Below are positions 3,041-27,012 of a stretch of DNA of 64,000 nt, in pieces. The DNA comes from an uncultured Acidobacteriota bacterium. GTDB taxonomy: Bacteria; Acidobacteriota; Terriglobia; UBA7540. Below the pieces are notes generated by a model. It made no database searches. It was given only the letters and a program-made list of their open reading frames with translations, and had not been told where the DNA came from. The stretch is from the NCBI GenBank assembly GCA_963804995.1, contig CAWDSK010000002.1, positions 576,001-640,000 of the forward strand, given 5' to 3'. The position numbers were made by a program, and so were the translations under genes. Within the stretch, counting starts at the first letter, position 1. Each line of letters starts with the position of its first letter.

Positions 3041-3096
3041 TGCCAGCCCGGGGCTGCCCCAATTAGCGAATACTCTCACCGTGCCCTTGCGGTAAG

Positions 3097-3212
3097 TTTC
3101 GGAGTGCGGGAGCTTGCTCCCGCTTTTTCCACGGCTGACTCGTCAGCGGTGGAGGCATCGCCGCATCGAGTTGCGGCGAGAGAAAGCGGCGACGAGTCGC
3201 CGCACTCCGAAA
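3097..3212. repeat. REP doublet, GGAGTGCG...CGCACTCC family
   Basis: Inverted ends tttcggagtgcgg / ccgcactccgaaa with internal hairpins; related copy at 29331-29441. Confidence 0.65.
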
Positions 3213-3239
3213 CACGAACCTGCACCCGCCGATTTTTAA

Positions 3240-4112: not shown

Positions 4113-4382
4113 GGGGTCCTCCAGATATCAGTGGTTTCACTCGATACAATGGCAAAGGTTAGCGATTATAGCCCACAGGCGCAACGGGGTTCGGAAGATT
4201 TGTGAAGTGATTAATCGTGGTTTCGGTCTTCCTGCTAAAGGGTGAGGGGTCAGTTTTGTAGCGCGGTCCCCCGTTTTTGGGGTCCGCGGCTCTTCATCTG
4301 AAAACTCTAAACCCGGCCGTGGTTTCTTCACATTCGTTCAAATGGCGCGCGAAGAACCGCAGACCTCAACGGCGGAGGTCTG

Positions 4383-6295
4383 GTGCGCCGGGATAAACCG
4401 GCAGAAAGCAGAGAATGAAAATTTCTCACGAGGAAGGAGCAGCGATCCACTCGGCCCCGAGTTTTGCGCTGGGCGTCGTGAGGCGCACGGTGAAGCGTAA
4501 ACAGGGGAATAGGTGGGCTGGGTATTGAGCTTCGAAAATGTCCAATCAGGACGCCGACGTTTTCAGACTAAACGGAAGGCAACATGAGGCCGGGACGCCA
4601 ACGCGAGTTCCGGCACAGTCCTGCGTAGTCGTAGACCCCAGACACGCCTAGACACTTTCTGCACGAGAACCGGGAGACCTCGGAGGCGCCGGCCGCCGTA
4701 GATCGTGGCCGGACGGCGGGAAAAGGCGATGGCCGTACAGCCCGCCTGCACGCTTTCGAGGAGTCGGACAGCGGAACAGTACCGATGAATCATTTGAACA
4801 AAGACGGGAAGCCGTTGGCGGAGAATGAGGAGGGAAGGCCGCTGATCAAGGAGAACACCCGTTGGCCTAACACGCACCCGACACAGAGCGGGGCACGCGT
4901 GTCCCAGGGACTCGCGGGTGTGCGGAAAGCCGCGAAGGAACACAGGGAGATGAAGTTCACGGCCTTGCTCCACCACTTAACGGTCGATCTGCTGCGGGAA
5001 AGCTTTTACGCCTTGAAGCGAAAAGCTGCACCGGGAGTAGACGGCATGACGTGGCAGGAGTATGAAAGCGGGCTGGAAGGTCGACTCGTCGATCTGCACA
5101 GCCGGGTCCACCGCGGAGCATTCCGAGCGAAGCCCTCGCGAAGGGCGTATATCCCGAAAGGCGACGGGCGGCAACGTCCGTTGGGGGTTGCGGCACTGGA
5201 GGACAAGATCGTCCAACAGGCCGTGGTCACCATCCTCAAGGCGATTTACGAGGAAGACTTTCTGGGCTTCTCGTATGGCTTTCGACCGGGACGCAGCCAG
5301 CATCAAGCGCTGGACGCGCTCTCGTACGCGCTCACGGTGAAGCACGTGAACTACGTTCTTGACGCGGACATTCGTGGATTTTTCGATTCGATATCCCACG
5401 AATGGATGCTCAAGTTCGTGCAGCATCGCGTCGCCGACCCCCGGATTCTCCGGCTCATCCAGAAATGGCTGAAAGCCGGGGTGAGGGAGGAAGGCGAATG
5501 GTCGGAGACGGAGATGGGTACGCCACAAGGGGCGGTGGTCTCGCCCCTGCTGGCGAATATCTATCTGCACTACGTCTTTGACCTGTGGGTGCAGGCGTGG
5601 CGCAAGAAGCACGCCCGGGGAGACGTGGTCGTGGTGCGGTATGCCGACGATACGGTCCTTGGATTCCAATCGCAGACGGAAGCCGACCGCTTTCTGGAGG
5701 ATTTCCGGGAGCGGGTGGGGAAGTTTGGATTGGAACTGCATCCTGACAAAACGCGCCGGATCGAGTTCGGGCCGTTTGCCGAACTTTACCGGAAACGGAG
5801 AGGAGAAGGTAAGCCGGAGACGTTCGACTTTCTGGGCTTCACGCATATCAGCGGGAAGAACCGGAGGGGGCAATTTACCGTGAAGCGGAAGACGATCAGC
5901 AAGCGCCTGCGGGGGAAGTTGCAGGAACTCAAGCAACAACTCCGGCAGCGTCGGCACGATCCCATCGCGGATACGGGTAAATGGCTCCGGTCGGTCGTGC
6001 AAGGCTACTTCAACTATCACGCGGTACCGGGAAACCTCGACCGCCTGCGAATCTTTCGGGAACGGTTGACCCGACTGTGGCGAACACAACTGCGTCAACG
6101 CAGTCAACGCCACCGCCTCAACTGGGACCGACTGGGGAAGCTTGCGGCCTGCTGGTTGCCTGCTCCGCACGTTGTGCATCCTTGGCCATCCCAACGGTTC
6201 GCCGCCACACATCCGAGATAAGAGCCGTATGCGCTAACCAGCGCACGTACGGATCCGTGCGGGGGGTACCGGGTAACCGGTATCCCTACCGCAAC
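4383..6295 (+). mobile_element. Group II intron, full length and RT-encoding
   Basis: 5' GTGCG at 4383; domain V GAGCCGTATGCG...CACGTACGGATC at 6222-6255; domain VI with bulged A ending ...CCGCAAC; removing it restores the repeat GGAGGTCTG|CGCTAC. Confidence 0.93.
4785..6221 (+). CDS. ltrA: Group II intron reverse transcriptase/maturase, no C-terminal endonuclease domain
   Basis: AAPGVDG, YIPKGDGRQRPLG, GFRPGRS, DADIRGFFD, GTPQGAVVSPLLANIYL, RYADD, FDFLGF and domain X. Confidence 0.95.
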   Translation: MNHLNKDGKPLAENEEGRPLIKENTRWPNTHPTQSGARVSQGLAGVRKAAKEHREMKFTALLHHLTVDLLRESFYALKRKAAPGVDGMTWQEYESGLEGRLVDLHSRVHRGAFRAKPSRRAYIPKGDGRQRPLGVAALEDKIVQQAVVTILKAIYEEDFLGFSYGFRPGRSQHQALDALSYALTVKHVNYVLDADIRGFFDSISHEWMLKFVQHRVADPRILRLIQKWLKAGVREEGEWSETEMGTPQGAVVSPLLANIYLHYVFDLWVQAWRKKHARGDVVVVRYADDTVLGFQSQTEADRFLEDFRERVGKFGLELHPDKTRRIEFGPFAELYRKRRGEGKPETFDFLGFTHISGKNRRGQFTVKRKTISKRLRGKLQELKQQLRQRRHDPIADTGKWLRSVVQGYFNYHAVPGNLDRLRIFRERLTRLWRTQLRQRSQRHRLNWDRLGKLAACWLPAPHVVHPWPSQRFAATHPR

Positions 6296-6969
6296 CGCTA
6301 CACCCCTTGGCCATCCAGGGAGGAACGGTCAGCAAACCACTGAGCGTGGCTACCCGCTGCTCCGTAGCGCGGTCCCCCGTTTTTGGGGTCCGCGGCACTT
6401 CATTTGAAAACTCTAAACCCGGCCCTGGCTTCTTCACATTTGTTCCAATGGCGCACGAAGAACCGCAGACATCAACGGCGGAGGTCTGCGCTACACCCCT
6501 TGGCCATCCAGGGAGGAACGGTCAGCAAACCACTGAGCGTGGCTACCCGCTGCTCCGTAGCGCGGTCCCCCGTTTTTGGGGTCCGCGGCTCTTCCTTTGA
6601 AAACTCGAAAATCCTAAACCTGGGTGACGGTTTCTCCGCCACGCTACATTTGGTGAAATGACACACGAAGAACCGCAGACCTCAACAGCGGAGGTCTGCG
6701 CTACACCCCTTGGCCATCCAGGGAGGAACGGTCAGCAAACCACTGAGCGTGGCTACCCGCTGCTCCGTAGCGCGGTCCCCCGTTTTTGGGGTCCGCGGCA
6801 CTTCATTTGAAAACTCGAAAATCCCAAACCCGGGCGGCGGTTTCTTCGCCTCAATACATTTGTTTCAATGGCGCCCGAAGAACCGCAGACCTCAACGGCG
6901 GAGGTCTGCGCTACACCCGCAACCCGCCTGAAAACGAGACAACCTTTGGGTGGGAGAACAATGGTTCGC

Positions 6970-8546: not shown

Positions 8547-8694
8547 GTAGCGCGGTCCCCCGTTTTTGGGGTCCGCGGCTCTTCATTTGGAAGTTCGATA
8601 ATCCTAAACCTGGGTGACGGTTTCTCCGCCACGCTACATTTGGTGAAATGACACACGAAGAACCGCAGACCTCAACAGCGGAGGTCTGCGCTAC
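8547..8694. repeat. REPIN copy 5 (same family as the array)
   Basis: Same termini; 3' two-thirds identical to array unit 3. Confidence 0.9.
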
Positions 8695-8802
8695 ACTTGC
8701 TTTCCATGCCGACGCCGGTGCCTGAATTCCGCCACAAGCTCGTCTTCGTTAACGTCAGCCAACGCCTTGGCAAGCCGATCCGCGGCCGCCTCCAGTTCAG
8801 CG

Positions 8803-8927
8803 GGTAGCCACGGTCAGCGTTTTTCTGACCGTGGGCTTTTCTGCTGCATTATCCGAAGGGTTTGCCTTAGCCATCTAGGGAAGAACCCACGGTCAGAAAA
8901 CGTCGCTGCGGCGACACCGTGGCTACC
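8803..8927. repeat. GGTAGCCACGG-family REP doublet
   Basis: ggtagccacggtcagc..ctgaccgtggg ... cccacggtcag..ccgtggctacc; the same hairpin type occurs in the 62-bp array linker and at 24577-24603. Confidence 0.6.
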
Positions 8928-9038: not shown

Positions 9039-9296
9039 ATGCACAGAACCCATCTGCGTAAGGTCGGCGGCTCGGTCATGCTGGCGGTACCGCGCGCCGT
9101 GCTCGACCTCCTGCGCTTGCGGCCGGGAGTACAGGTCGGCCTTGCAATCGATCGCGGCCGGCTGGTGGTGGAACGGCAAAAACGCCCCCGCTACACCCTG
9201 ACCGAACTGCTCGCCCAATGCGACTCCAAGGCCCGGCGCACTAAGGAAGAACGGGAATGGCTCCGTAACAAGCCTGTGGGTCGGGAGCTGATCTGA
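9039..9296 (+). CDS. mazE: MazE/PemI (AbrB-fold) antitoxin
   Basis: LRKVGGSVMLAVP, RPRYTLTELLAQCD, PVGRELI; stop overlaps the toxin start. Confidence 0.9.
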   Translation: MHRTHLRKVGGSVMLAVPRAVLDLLRLRPGVQVGLAIDRGRLVVERQKRPRYTLTELLAQCDSKARRTKEEREWLRNKPVGRELI

Positions 9297-9628
9297 TGAG
9301 ACGTGGTGATATCTGGTTGGTGGGGCTTGATCCAGCCGAAGGGCACGAGCAAAAGGGTCGACGCCCTGTCCTGATCATCTCGCCCGATGCTTTTAACCGG
9401 GTCACCAAGGTGCCCGTGGTTCTCCCCATCACCAGCGGGGGAAGTTTCGCGCGGACCGCCGGATTTGCGGTATCTCTGACCGGCGCCGGCACCAAAACCA
9501 CCGGCGTTATCCGCTGCGACCAGCCCCGCGCGCTGGATCTCGCCGCGCGCCACGGCCGAAAGTTGGAAAACGTACCCGATGCGATCCTGGACGAGGTTTT
9601 GGCGAAGGTAGCAACAATTCTTGAGTAG
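9296..9628 (+). CDS. mazF: MazF/PemK endoribonuclease toxin
   Basis: RGDIWLVGLDPAEGHEQKGRRPVLIIS...FN...VLPITS...CDQPRALD. Confidence 0.93.
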   Translation: MRRGDIWLVGLDPAEGHEQKGRRPVLIISPDAFNRVTKVPVVLPITSGGSFARTAGFAVSLTGAGTKTTGVIRCDQPRALDLAARHGRKLENVPDAILDEVLAKVATILE

Positions 9629-9773
9629 CGCGGTCCCCCGTTTTTGTGGGTCCGCGGCTCTTCATTTGAAAACCCGGGAATCCTAAGTCTGGGCGATGGT
9701 TTCCCTGCCACCCTGCATTTATTCAAATCGGGCACGAAGAACCGCAGACCTCAAGGGCGGAGGTCTGCGCTAC
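9625..9773. repeat. REPIN copy 6; its GTAG contains the mazF TAG stop
   Basis: GTAGCGCGGTCCCCCG...GAGGTCTGCGCTAC. Confidence 0.9.
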
Positions 9774-11300: not shown

Positions 11301-11342
11301 TGAATCAGGACGGAAGTTGTCACAGAACTCCCCTCCTCAGAT

Positions 11343-11441
11343 GAGGCCGTCTCAGAACTGGCAAAAGCACAGTTTTTAGAACGAATAATCAATAACTTAC
11401 GCTGTGCAAAAGTATGAAATGCCTAGTTTTGAGACGGCCTC
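11343..11441. mobile_element. 99-bp MITE inserted in the loop of a CCCCTCCTC-hairpin repeat
   Basis: TIRs gaggccgtctcagaact / agttttgagacggcctc with AGAT duplicated on both sides; homolog at 59183-59281. Confidence 0.8.
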
Positions 11442-11901
11442 AGATGAGGAGGGGTGGCGCGCCGAGCGCCGGGGTGGTGCTGACAAGGTAAAGGCGTGGT
11501 GCTGATCGTGGCGTCAACCCACCGGAAATAGCTTGCGACTTGCGTACGACGCGGGAGTTGAGCGCCTTGGCTCTAACCTATGGCACTTTTCGCAGGTTGT
11601 CACCGATGACAGATTCTGCAATCCTGCACGGGCATGGGGCACTTCAAAGGGTAGGGCGTTTTACGGCCACATGGGTTGTTTTTGGTCTGCCCCCGTACTC
11701 CGGTTGGCCTAACTCCGCCTGTTTCGCTTTCGAAACTCTTTACAGGCACGTCAGAGAGCCGCTTGAAAGCTTTTGGTCTGATGTTTCATAATTGACTGAG
11801 GGCAGCGTTCACCCGTGCGGCATCACGTGGGGTCTGCACATATCCTCTTGCGAGGGCCGTGTGACTAGCCGACATATTGGCGGCGCGCGCCAGAGGATAG
11901 G

Positions 11902-21722: not shown

Positions 21723-21803
21723 GGTGAGCCTCAACCTGCGGTTCTACTGCCGTCCAGCCATCTTAGAGAACCGGCCGATGCACGTCAAGCGTGCCCCATT
21801 TTT

Positions 21804-21913
21804 GGTAGTGGTTCAGTTTGATGTAGAGGTGGCGGCATTCATCCCGACCTGATCGGGACGCAGCCAATTGGCGAAGGAAACTCGCCGCTACAAGATCAAA
21901 CTGTACCACTACC
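21804..21913. mobile_element. MITE with GGTAGTGGTTCAGTTTGA-type TIRs carrying a GTAGAGG..CTCGCCGCTAC REP
   Basis: TIR pair; flanks ccattttt/ccatttcc; relatives at 38612, 45380 and 61663. Confidence 0.65.
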
Positions 21914-22076
21914 CCATTTCCCGCCTTCTGCCAGGAGGTGGGAGCGGCTGCCCTCCAAGACTGACCGAAGTTTTACGAGTTGTTACCTGAAAACTGGACC
22001 ATGCGCTATACTCTCCCGGTTCAAGAACCCGCGCGGAGTGTGCTTCTGCGCTATCGCTGTACTTGAAAGGTCAACT

Positions 22077-23274
22077 ATGGGAGCCCGACCCTCCAAATTA
22101 CTCTGGGTATTCTTTCTTGCCTATTTCACCTTCGGGATGATGTACGTGCTGGGCGCGCTCACCCCCGACGTTATCGCGGAGTACAGTCTCAGCCGTTTCG
22201 CGGCGGGACTCCTCGGGTCGGCCTTCTATTTTGCCTACACACTTTGCGCGATTCCCACCGGTCTGCTCATGGACCGGCTGGGCGGCCGCCTCTTAATTCT
22301 TTCCGGCGTTTTTTTGATGGGCCTGGGTTGCCTGGTGGTGTCACGTGCCCACAGTTACCCGCTGATTCTGGCTATGGTCTTCGCCGTGGGCGTGGGCGTG
22401 ACGATGCTCCAGACCAGCGGCAACCCTCTCATCAAACAACTCAACATACCGGCGAACTACGACCGCAACCTGACGATCACCATCGGATTTGCGGGGTTCG
22501 GGCCGTTCTTCGCGCCGTTCGTGCTTGCCTACATTCGCAGCACGGGGCGCCCCTGGCAGGCACTCTATCTGTTCTTCGCCTTCTTCTGCCTGGGAGTATT
22601 GATCCTGCTGGCAGTTTCCAAGTTCCCGCCCCGCGTCCAGAGCAGTGACCGCATGCAATTGGGAAAGGTCGGGCAGTTGCTCCGTAATCCGCTCATCATC
22701 GCTTACATGTTCGGCATCTTTTTTTACGTGGCGGCAGAGGTCGGGACGGCGTTCTGGATTCCCAAATTCTTTGAGGACGTGCACGGCGTGCCCGCGGCGG
22801 TAACCGCCAGCAACGCCGCCAGTTTATTTGCCAGGGCCTTCCCCAGTCTGCCGGCGTTCATCTTCGCGCTCTTCTGGGGACTGCAAGGCACCGGGCAGGC
22901 TGGTGAGCGGCGCCGTGTTAAAGAAATTCGGAAGCCGGAATATTCTCCGCGTTTTTTCGGTCATGGCGCTCGTCTGCCTGCTGGTTGCGACCTTCGGGTC
23001 GAAGACCCTGACCGCGGTGGGATTTGTCGCCTGTGGTTTCTTCACTTCGGTGTTGTTCACCCTGATCTTCAGCGGTACGATCAACAGTTTTGCGGAGAAT
23101 CACGGCACCATCTCCGGGCTGCTGTGCACGGCGGTCTTGGGAGGCGCGCTGATTCCTCCGCTCGAAGGCTTAGTGGGCGATCATCTTGGCATGCGCATGG
23201 CCATGCTGGTCCCCGCGCTGTGTTTTGCCTACGTGGCGGGCCTGGCCTTTTGGGGCCGCGCTAAATACCAATAG
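22077..23274 (+). CDS. MFS sugar transporter (FucP-like); probable 1-nt indel near 22890
   Basis: About 12 TM segments, GLLMDRLGGR, GIFFYVAAEVG, SGLLCTAVLGGALIP. Confidence 0.85.
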
Positions 23275-23492
23275 CGGTTTTGGGGGCAGTGGCGCCATCA
23301 GATGATGTGGAGGCGGCTTTAGGCTGACATTTGGCGAGGTAAACTCGCCGCTACGCCTTTTGGGGCCGCGCTAAATACCAATAGCAGTTTTGGGGGCAGT
23401 GGCGCCATCAGATGTAGAGGCGGCTTTAGGCTGACATTTGGCGAGGTAAACTCGCCGCTACACCTTTTGGGGCCGCACTAAATACGAATAGC
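23245..23492. repeat. About 110-bp tandem repeat (2.3 copies) made of the MFS 3' end plus a REP
   Basis: ccttttggggccgc(g/a)ctaaatac.aatagc at 23246, 23356 and 23463, alternating with ggcgaggtaaactcgccgctac. Confidence 0.85.
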
Positions 23493-23518
23493 GTTATGGG
23501 GAAGGGAGTCGACTGGTT

Positions 23519-24511
23519 ATGGGGAAGTTAATCATCGGCATCGACGTGGGCGGAACGAAAGTGGCGGGGGGGCTGGTCACGCTGAAGGGGCGGCTGGTGG
23601 AATCTCAGATTGTCCCCACATACGCCGAGAAGGGGTTTAGCAAAAGTTACGCCCAGATCGTCCACCTGATTGAGCGTCTGGTTCGCGCCGCGGGGGGAAA
23701 GCACAACCTGCGGGGGATTGGCATCTGCGCGCCCGGACCGCTCAATCCCAAGACGGGTGTGGTGATTAATCCGCCTAATCTCTCCGGCTGGCGGAATGTG
23801 GAATTGGCGAAGATGGTTGAGAAGCGATTCGGCCTGCCCGCCAAGGTGGAAAACGATGCCAACGCCGCGGGACTCGCGGAAGTTCTGTTCGGCGCCGCCG
23901 TGGGTTTCAAGGATGTCTTCTATGTGACGGTGAGTACCGGTATCGGAACCGGAATTATCATTAACGGAAAGATCTATCACGGCAAGAACGGTGTGGCCGG
24001 TGAAGGCGGCCATGTCTCCATCGATTGCCACAGCCCTTACCGCTGCGGCTGCGGGACACTGGGCTGCATTGAAGCGTTGGCGGCGGGCCCCGCCATGGCC
24101 CGGCGGGCGCGCGTGATGCTCGAGCAGGAACACAACCTGCCCAGCGCTCTGCGCGATATTACTGCAGGCCACCTGGAACAGATTACTCCGCTCATGATTG
24201 AGGAGGCGGCGCGCCGTGGAGACGCAGTGGCGAAAGCCGTCTTGAGCGACACGGGTTTCTACCTGGGGGTGTGGCTGGCCGGCATGATCACGCTTTTCGA
24301 TCCCGAAGCCATCGTGATGGGGGGCGGTGTTTCCAGAATCGGCAAGCCCCTATTTGATAAGATCAAAGAGACTATACCGCAGTATTCCATCAACCGCCTT
24401 TTCGCCGTCAAGACCCCCCTACTGCCCGCCAAACTCCAGAAGAATGTCGGCGTTTATGGCGCGGCCGCAGTCTTCCTGCCGTCCGGGGAAGAAGCTGAGA
24501 CAGGGGCTTGA
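23519..24511 (+). CDS. ROK family sugar kinase (glucokinase-like)
   Basis: IGIDVGGTK, ENDANAAGLAE, STGIGTG, GEGGH, CGCGTLGCIEA. Confidence 0.9.
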   Translation: MGKLIIGIDVGGTKVAGGLVTLKGRLVESQIVPTYAEKGFSKSYAQIVHLIERLVRAAGGKHNLRGIGICAPGPLNPKTGVVINPPNLSGWRNVELAKMVEKRFGLPAKVENDANAAGLAEVLFGAAVGFKDVFYVTVSTGIGTGIIINGKIYHGKNGVAGEGGHVSIDCHSPYRCGCGTLGCIEALAAGPAMARRARVMLEQEHNLPSALRDITAGHLEQITPLMIEEAARRGDAVAKAVLSDTGFYLGVWLAGMITLFDPEAIVMGGGVSRIGKPLFDKIKETIPQYSINRLFAVKTPLLPAKLQKNVGVYGAAAVFLPSGEEAETGA

Positions 24512-24646: not shown

Positions 24647-24716
24647 GACCCCTCACCCGTCCCGCCCCGGCTGATGAAAACGCCGGCGGCGGTCCACCCT
24701 CTCCCCTCGGAGAGGG
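24647..24716. repeat. 70-bp palindromic repeat, identical to 26603-26672
   Basis: gacccctcacccgtcccgccccggctgatgaaaacgccggcggcggtccaccctctcccctcggagaggg. Confidence 0.9.
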
Positions 24717-24812
24717 CTAGGCATCGTAAGTCCCAGCCTTCTCCCAGGGGAGAAGGTGTGCTACTCCGCGCGAAATCGCGGATCAATTTGCGAGTTTCGA
24801 ATTATCGTTTCT

Positions 24813-25232
24813 TTAGCCTTTGAGCAGTTCCACACCGGAAGCCCTGGCCGCGGCACGCAAGTTCTTATCCAAGGTTGCGATAGCCACTCCCTCAACCTGA
24901 GCGAGATCCAGGTAGGCAGCGTCATAGGAGGAAAGCTGGTGCTGGCGTGCGAGGCGGGCAATGGACGAGTAGCTGCGTCCGATCCCGTCCAGGTCAACCG
25001 CAATGGGGAGGTCTTTGAGGTCGGCAATAAACGTGTCTAGTTGCGCAAGTGTGATGGCCTTTTGGCGTGCCGCCACCACCAGGCTATTAACCATCTCGAA
25101 CGGCCAGAGGGCCGGCGCCAGCGCCTCATCTCCGCCGGCTAGACGGTCGAAGACGGCTTCGGTATACGCCGTCTTTTGGCTCGGGAAATACCAGCACAGC
25201 GCGACTGACGCATCCACGACAAAACGTGTCAA
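24813..25232 (-). CDS. vapC: VapC/PIN-domain toxin
   Basis: FVVDASVAL, P.LWPFEMVNSL, LSSYDAAYLDLA, ATLDKNL. Confidence 0.9.
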   Translation of the reverse strand: MTRFVVDASVALCWYFPSQKTAYTEAVFDRLAGGDEALAPALWPFEMVNSLVVAARQKAITLAQLDTFIADLKDLPIAVDLDGIGRSYSSIARLARQHQLSSYDAAYLDLAQVEGVAIATLDKNLRAAARASGVELLKG

Positions 25233-25474
25233 AACCGCCGCCCCTCCTCAATCAAGCGCCGCAGAGTGTAACCCTTGGGCAGGTGGGCATCCTTACGCGT
25301 CTGCCGAATGTGCTCGATCACCTCTCGCGGGGCGCGTCGCGAACGCCGGCTGACGGGCACCAGCATGGCGACTTCCTTACCGCGCCGCGTGATCATGAAC
25401 TCCTCGCCCTTCGATGCTCTTTCCACGAGCTCGGAAAGGCCGTTCTTCGCCTGAAATAATCCTACACTGTGCAT
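25229..25474 (-). CDS. Phd/YefM family antitoxin
   Basis: VGLFQAKNGLSELVERASKGEEFMITRRGKEVAMLVP; overlaps vapC start. Confidence 0.9.
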   Translation of the reverse strand: MHSVGLFQAKNGLSELVERASKGEEFMITRRGKEVAMLVPVSRRSRRAPREVIEHIRQTRKDAHLPKGYTLRRLIEEGRRF

Positions 25475-25624
25475 ACACCCGATCCTCTTTCGAATAATCT
25501 AGCTAACAGTCTAGCTGAAAAGACTTCTTACGGTCAAATCTGCTTTGGGTCGAAGTGGGTAGCACTTCTTCAGATGCGCCCCCGCCCGCCGAAATAATGT
25601 TACAGCACATGCTTTTCATATTAA

Positions 25625-26533
25625 GAGCTTATCCGTAAATACTTATTGAAGTCTGCTGCAATTTGATGCATGATTATGACCCAAGATGCCGCAGATAAAA
25701 TCTTGGGAAGTATCCGACGAGTTTTGGGTGAAAGTCGAACCGCTGATTCCGGTTCGACAGCGGTCGAAAGGCCGAAAGTATAGGCGGAAGCCGGGGGGTG
25801 GGAGGAAGCCAATGCCGGCGCGCCGGATCTTCTCGGCCATTGTGTATGTGCTGCGCACGGGATGTCAGTGGAAGGCCTTGCCCAAGGAATTCGGCAGCGC
25901 CAGCGCGGTCCACAAGCATTTTCAACAGTGGCACCGGGCGGGTTTCTTTCTGGCGCTCTGGCGGTCGGGGCTGGCCGAGTACGATGAGCTGGAGGGCATT
26001 GCCTGGGACTGGCAAAGCATCGACGGAGCGATGGTGAAAGCCCCGCTGGCCTTGACTTGCGTGGGACCCAATCCCACCGATCGGGGAAAAAAATGGGCGC
26101 AAGCGAAGTTTGTTAGTCGACGGGCGTGGCGTCCCACTATCGCTCGCCGTCAGCGGAGCCAACCTGCATGATGTGAAGCTGCTGGCCACCACCCTCGACC
26201 AGGTGGTGAGAGCGCGACCGGCACCGCGACCGAGAAAGCCCCAGCACCTTTGCGCCGATGCCGGTTACAAGGGATCCCGCGCTCGGCAAGCGGCCACGAA
26301 CCGCCACTACCGGCCGCATATCAAGCAACAGCGAGAAGAGATGGAAGCAAAACGTATCGTCCCCGGTTACAAGGCTCGCCGATGGGTGGTCGAGCGGACC
26401 CATTCCTGGCTCAACCGATACCGCAAGGTGTTGGTGAGCTTTGAAAAGACCGAGGAAAGCTACGTCGCCCTACTAACCTTAGCCGCGGCCATGATCTGCT
26501 GGCGACAGACAATTATTATTTACGGATAAGCTC
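25625..26533 (+). mobile_element. IS5-family insertion sequence (909 bp)
   Basis: Perfect 17-bp TIR gagcttatccgtaaata / tatttacggataagctc; TAA duplicated at 25622-25624 and 26534-26536. Confidence 0.92.
25686..26529 (+). CDS. IS5-family transposase in two frames joined at an A7 run (26087-26093)
   Basis: YVLRTGCQWKALP, SIDG, NPTDRGK, LVDGRGVPL, ADAGY, RWVVERTHSWLNRYR. Confidence 0.9.
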
Positions 26534-26602
26534 TAAGAGCCGCAGAGTGTGAAAGGACCACACTCTGCGCTACCCTGGCAAAGTCTCAATGGGTTCCAGG
26601 GC

Positions 26603-26672
26603 GACCCCTCACCCGTCCCGCCCCGGCTGATGAAAACGCCGGCGGCGGTCCACCCTCTCCCCTCGGAGAGGG
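26603..26672. repeat. 70-bp palindromic repeat, identical to 24647-24716
   Basis: Direct identical copy. Confidence 0.9.
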
Positions 26673-27012
26673 TGGTTTGATTTCCAACCTTCTCCCAGGG
26701 GTCGCAGATCCGCCGTGGCGGGAGAAGGTGCTGAGGTACGAAGCGGATGAGGGGTCTCGAAGTCGCGCCTTTCAGCACTCGTCCCAAAATGTTTGCTAAA
26801 AAAACAAGGGTTTACGGTATTGCAATGCAGATTCTCGTGCTCTCCGAGGCTCTGCGGCTCTTCTTCAGATACGCCCCCGCTCGCTGAAATGATGTTACAG
26901 CGCATGCTTCTCATCTTAAGAGCCGCAGAGTGTGAAAGGCATACACTCTGCGCTACCACGCTACCACGCTTGGGGAGGAATCCCAGCTAGTGATGCTGGT
27001 CAACGTTTCGAG

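Follow-up and report, generated by a model that had tools for sequence, protein, structure and literature searches.

A multi-copy class E group II intron located in the REP hairpins of an uncultured Acidobacteriota bacterium

The group II intron at positions 4383–6295 of the window (the whole 64 000-nucleotide stretch of Acidobacteriota DNA that was analysed; all features located below lie on its forward strand) belongs to a genomic family of 39 full copies, and each of the 37 copies with readable flanks sits at the same position within a REP hairpin. The preliminary description had proposed that the intron targets an abundant intergenic REP family, and this is upheld by the 37/37 scorable copies; 33 of these 37 occupied sites fall outside crude gene calls. 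In our view, it is very probable that this is a recently active class E intron which retrohomes into REPs by RNA–DNA pairing.

The intron is 1913 nt in length, opens with GTGCG at 4383 and closes with AAC at 6295, and displays the hallmarks of group II introns, namely a GUGYG start, an AY end and domains I, V and VI. The Rfam model group-II-D1D4-6 matches 4418–4638 with 170 bits, a segment that encloses the EBS1 loop. Domains V and VI occupy 6222–6295 (fold z of -6.4); within them, 6223–6225 is presumably the AGC triad and 6288 the bulged branch A. Domain IV houses the RT/maturase ORF (4785–6221, 478 amino acids), as is characteristic of group II introns, with a YADD motif and a TIGR04416 score of 347.6 bits (cut-off 300). 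RVT_1 is its sole Pfam domain; no endonuclease domain was found in the 478-residue RT by the Pfam scan, and the ORF stops at domain V. Contigs from four runs, three of DNA and one of RNA, contain pieces of the intron and its relatives. No joint spanning the whole intron occurs among the 15 of 32 contig joints listed, which has no bearing on splicing either way, and in the run search the RNA runs matched the intron with small shares only.

The RT is 58–59% identical, over 99–100% of its length, to class E introns on NZ_CP032692, NZ_CP032695, NC_010627 and NC_018696; for all four, Table_3 of PMC8919778 gives type E at coordinates that match. In a quick tree of 54 RTs, in which deep forks are weak and a class C reference is absent, the end branches of the E references measure 0.4–0.9 and those of the D, F and CL1A references 3.2–3.9. 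These plasmid matches and the tree answer the question of class, which the preliminary description had referred to RT phylogeny: from the RT match and distance, the lack of an endonuclease domain and the possession of EBS2, the intron is assigned to class E. Membership of class C is ruled out by the EBS2, the 6-nt EBS1 and the cut inside the stem.

The 5' part of the interrupted REPIN (4258–4382) consists of a left GTAG REP, a spacer and the right REP up to the cut. The target REP hairpin (4358–4382) has its 5' arm at 4358–4367, its loop at 4368–4374 and its 3' arm at 4375–4382, with IBS2 (4371–4374) in the loop and IBS1 (4377–4382) in the 3' arm. The 3' exon CGCTAC (6296–6301) supplies the last two stem bases, of which 6296 is IBS3, and the complement of the GTAG tag. 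On removal of the intron the flanks rejoin as GGAGGTCTG|CGCTAC (the bar marks the insertion point), the very split that had been described, and the other scorable copies rejoin likewise. The earlier placement of the cut at the hairpin base needs a small correction: the stem (CGCAGACCTC / GAGGTCTG|CG) is cut 2 bp from its end, and not below it. The folding energy of the target hairpin is about -11.5 kcal/mol in the window copy. As also noted previously, five further REPINs in the window are empty and retain the intact site: 6364–6494 (site at 6483), 6557–6704 (6693), 6767–6914 (6903), 8547–8694 (8683) and 9625–9773 (9762). Between REPINs at 9039–9628 lie two small overlapping ORFs, a pair which we take to resemble an antitoxin–toxin of the MazE/MazF type. 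Other repeat families occur in the window at 3096–3213, 6325–6359, 8798–8832, 11324–11471, 21801–23531 and 24647–26957, some of which match motifs beside other Y1 transposases of the genome.

The repeat has the high copy number, intergenic location, inverted doublets, tag and GC-rich hairpin of REPs and REPINs. Two target subfamilies with a common stem can be distinguished, one with a GTAG tag 2 nt off the stem and the other with the non-standard tag CTGG in its place; in total, the genome holds 280 target arms with a hairpin, along with 139 motifs of the left arm. There are 14 Y1_Tnp matches in the genome, and the two that were scanned score 111.9 and 117 bits against NF047646 (REP-associated tyrosine transposase; cut-off 80). 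One of these RAYTs (L012) lies amid GTAG REPINs and the other (L011) between CTGG REPs, and an intron copy adjoins each; the distance to a RAYT domain is 109 nt for one copy and 317 nt for another. Because two above-cut-off RAYTs are flanked by the repeat, we consider it to be RAYT-type, as had been claimed. Four other genomes of the genus were counted and each contains both stem variants, which indicates that the REP is older and more widespread than the intron burst.

The single assembly searched comprises 7.55 Mb in nine contigs. Its 39 full intron copies are 99.6–100% identical, and one partial copy ends at a contig end. The RT ORF is intact in 38/39 full copies and the EBS1 sequence is invariant in all 39. 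The common insertion position is RGTCYG|CGCYA with the hairpin upstream, and its identity in 37/37 copies means that the placement is not due to chance; the two remaining full copies abut contig ends and have no readable 5' flank, but their 3' flanks are consistent with it. The same intron haplotypes are found in differing REP subfamilies. We note that seven common variants are shuffled among the 39 copies, such that 20/21 site pairs fail the four-gamete test, which could reflect recombination, template switching or polishing. If polishing were the cause, the copy number might itself be questioned as an artefact of assembly or polishing, the more so as several contigs end in or next to the intron; however, the 37 differing flank pairs rejoin into intact REPs and the same junction occurs in other genomes and in metagenome contigs, and we regard an artefact as extremely improbable. 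Two pairs of copies lie in adjacent REPs at contig ends (C6:2170486 and 2172663, 264 nt apart; C7:1 and 1974, 69 nt apart).

Three guides are assigned in domain I. EBS1 (CAGACU, 4564–4569) lies in the hairpin 4558–4574, CGTTTTCAGACTAAACG, and pairs to exon positions -1 to -6; EBS2 (UGUC, 4539–4542) pairs to -9 to -12; and EBS3 (G, 4631) pairs to +1, a C. The EBS1–IBS1 and EBS3–IBS3 pairings expected of a group II intron are thus both present. Domain I was aligned for 72 distinct related introns and each intron column was scored against each exon position in a blind scan. The best four pairs were 4566/-3, 4567/-4, 4565/-2 and 4564/-1 (z of 9.9 to 6.8), with 4568/-5 next (4.9), which bears out the earlier reading of the CAGACU loop as EBS1; 4631/+1 pairs in 94% of 51 introns. 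The kinship of the 72 introns means that these z-values, like the guide scores below, overstate significance; the guides nonetheless take many differing sequences. For the 51/72 introns with parsed loops, EBS1 scores 5.36 versus 2.36 when shuffled. EBS2, taken as the four bases after CGAAAA pairing to -9..-12 (or -10..-13), scores 3.01 versus 1.81, a value reached in 0/1000 shuffles, and 3.0 versus 1.75 with one intron per guide type (28 types). A register control at -7/-12 also exceeds all shuffles, by less (2.06 versus 1.78), which weakens the EBS2 test slightly; the control at -13/-14 does not exceed all shuffles. Occupied target arms have a slightly higher EBS2 score than empty ones (3.08 versus 2.70). 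At 37/37 occupied sites the REP loop contains IBS2 and the stem contains IBS1 and IBS3; EBS1 CAGACU closely resembles CAGACC in the 5' arm of the REP itself.

Occupancy follows the guide match. GGTCTG sites are occupied in 32/144 cases and GGTCCG sites, with one EBS1 mismatch, in 4/117 (p = 7e-6); for AGTCYG the figure is 1/19. Among GGTCTG sites, 19/98 GTAG-tagged and 13/46 CTGG-tagged ones are filled. No insertions were found at 139 left-arm sites, at 81 and 142 sites of two related REP motifs or at 128 mirror-strand sites of the same hairpins. The mirror sites are avoided despite having the same IBS1, IBS3 and stem; their loop is complementary, with an EBS2 score of 0.94 against 3.08 at occupied sites, and they also differ at +3..+5, and either difference could decide. 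Position-by-position comparison of the 32 occupied and 112 empty GGTCTG REPs gave no discriminating base (smallest p of 0.07), and no clear rule emerged for orientation to neighbouring genes (22/34 on the upstream gene's strand). Since 144 of the 169 perfect 11-mers in the genome lie within REP hairpins, the REP family supplies most targets. An intron inserting at any short IBS match, with selection purging the copies outside REPs, could account for the emptiness of the 19/25 hairpin-less perfect 11-mers in called genes; it does not readily account for 269 intergenic hairpin-less GGTCTG|C sites and the 128 mirror sites in the same harmless REPs, all of them empty, and we think such purging very improbable.

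Replication direction was estimated from fourfold-site skew, which is weak and leaves single-site calls unsure. On this estimate, 25/64 GGTCTG sites are occupied on the leading-sense strand versus 7/80 on the other (p = 1.6e-5), the window copy being perhaps among the 7/32 copies on the opposite strand. Plain GC skew gives 24/54 versus 8/90, and contig C6 alone 15/20 versus 0/29. The bias fits what would be insertion into the lagging-strand template, the preference described for RmInt1 (PMC5894124); a moderate strand bias is given for class E introns in section 10 of PMC8919778. A history of one or a few insertions, after which RAYT activity, recombination or gene conversion multiplied the intron along with its REPIN, would agree with the two copies near RAYT domains and with the mosaic variation, but not with flanks that vary in loop, spacer and subfamily around a nearly identical intron, nor with a strand bias at occupied sites that the empty GGTCCG REPs lack (60 versus 53). 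As the source of the copies, such spread is already disfavoured and in our estimation highly improbable.

The most likely mechanism is class E retrohoming of the ordinary kind, directed to a target that is unusual and abundant. EBS1 reads -1..-6, EBS2 -9..-12 and EBS3 +1, as the covariation shows. By analogy with RmInt1 and from the strand bias, the intron would be transcribed by read-through and spliced out with its RT, would reverse splice into whichever REP strand is left open as template for lagging-strand synthesis and, as an intron without endonuclease, would be copied from a fork primer. Expansion to 39 copies would have been possible because the REP family provides most perfect targets and is mostly intergenic.

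The hairpin may contribute to homing. A refinement of the retrohoming explanation, which does not exclude it, is that EBS2 docks on the exposed REP loop as a toehold and EBS1 then displaces the 5' arm and opens the stem. This is possible, and we hold it tentatively, as somewhat unlikely. At 37/37 occupied sites -15..-9 is unpaired and -8..+2 paired (mean of -11.9 kcal/mol), and the unused mirror sites share everything in the stem and differ in the loop that EBS2 would read. The 190 sites that match IBS1, IBS2 and IBS3 but lack a hairpin are all unoccupied, and 43 of these are intergenic. Of intergenic hairpin-less perfect 11-mers, however, there are just six (none occupied, p = 0.34), and of intergenic hairpin-less sites that also have the A-15/A-14 context just three. 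The IS110 element ISPpu10, which uses an RNA-guided match, gains specificity from a target stem-loop (10.64898/2026.03.19.712850). Against a role for structure, a stem burying IBS1 should impede pairing, and relatives insert without a stable hairpin (one of three G043 sites; L154 and L156; the AAAGG-type L017, L018, L025 and L122). Relatives whose targets lack a hairpin keep EBS2 in the same -9 register, which suggests that the loop placement may be coincidence.

The closest relatives of the intron are almost all from Acidobacteriota. An intron in genome G005 (RT 92–93% identical, EBS1 CGGACU) occupies the same REP family at 6/6 sites, five of which have an EBS1 mismatch. One in genome G043 (88% DNA identity) has two of three copies in the REP hairpin, and genome G002 has one copy there. 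A metagenome search with the EBS1 loop alone returned 42 loci, 25 of which have a distinct flank of at least 30 nt; IBS1 lies inside a hairpin in 11/25, some boundaries being miscalled, compared with 1.3 (at most 4) in shuffles. A genus-wide junction search allowing one mismatch returned mostly chance matches (4/7 of those fetched are introns). A branch at 60–61% RT identity, with EBS1 CAGAGC, sits in a related CTGG-tagged REP. Other close relatives (80–88%) carry different guides and target an AAAGG-type motif or GGGTAGCCA, motifs that occur 70 and 52 times in the genome analysed here. A large 72–79% clade (L019–L022, L032–L035 and many of L044–L093) has differing guides and targets an imperfect palindrome, about 28 nt long, which it enters in either orientation; a Pfam scan covering 40 adjacent ORFs did not reveal what this palindrome is, and IS110 transposases adjoin 4/20 scanned loci. 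In the quick tree REP use appears at two places and AAAGG-targeting introns are interspersed with REP users. REP homing is therefore a trait of some branches and not of the whole lineage. The possibility raised earlier, that copies or relatives might sit in non-REP sites, does not apply to the intron's own copies but does apply to its more distant relatives, which use other guides.

Several relatives, many of them REP users, have a 5' end of GAAAGCG, GATAGCG or GTAAGCG, which exceeds GUGCG by two bases (L016, L026, L118, L148, L152, L154–L157, L159, L165 and several of L198–L239), and at locus L059 one intron follows another directly, head to tail, without an intervening exon. The present genome also contains five stubs (5' ends of 40–230 nt) of other related introns, at C2:652257, C6:842676, C5:460087, C1:441114 and C1:206552. 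Four of the five occupy motif kinds that full-length relatives use elsewhere, and we suggest that the stubs are traces of earlier intron waves. Other RT families (32–37% identity), several of them multi-copy, are located at C9:154739, C3:1126646, C1:97964, C1:289876, C6:296931 and elsewhere.

A broader reading, which we consider rather unlikely at present, is that some branches of the Acidobacteriota class E introns are repeat hunters, switching between intergenic repeat families by reprogramming EBS1 and EBS2, their REP-homing members entering the folded hairpin by an EBS2 loop toehold followed by EBS1 arm displacement. If true, this would be a fourth target rule, fed by RAYT-made REPs, beside the three specificities (homing sites, terminators and attC) listed in a 2015 review (PMC4424553). 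The intron widens the range of targets of group II introns and ties retroelements to REPIN/RAYT populations. Hundreds of graded target variants lie together in a single genome, a natural system in which class E homing rules, the role of EBS2, strand bias and site saturation (PMC3522654) are testable, and a REP-guided retroelement could carry DNA into many intergenic sites simultaneously.

Class E introns are described as having EBS1 plus EBS2, with α' in the DId3 stem-loop and a 5-nt DV loop, and the role of their EBS2 is given as an open question (PMC3753933). The present intron shares with them EBS1, EBS2 and the lack of an endonuclease domain, and differs in having 39 copies in one genome, all scorable ones in REPs; no REP target for class E introns was found described in the literature. 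RmInt1 of Sinorhizobium meliloti (class D) and IS-homing introns such as E.c.I4 likewise lack the endonuclease, use a harmless multi-copy target and show a lagging-strand bias (PMC5894124, PMC3522654), but their target is an IS transposase gene, whereas the present intron, whose RT is 33% identical to a class D reference, targets a non-coding REP of 30 nt that offers over 140 best-match sites. Class C (IIC) introns also use multi-copy intergenic hairpins, namely terminators and attC (PMC4424553, PMC12584367); they are described as lacking EBS2 and part of EBS1 (PMC3753933) and insert after the terminator hairpin, whereas the present intron cuts inside the stem and has a 6-nt EBS1 as well as EBS2. 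Literature searches, with most subscription papers outside their coverage, returned no published description of group II intron homing into REPs, and the association with REPs reported in PMC1525189 is 100% for several IS and 2/9 for a P. putida group II intron. REP targeting is common to our intron and to ISPpu9, ISPpu10, ISPa11 and ISPsy8, but the latter are DNA transposons; REPs are thus a familiar landing place for IS and an unusual one for group II introns.
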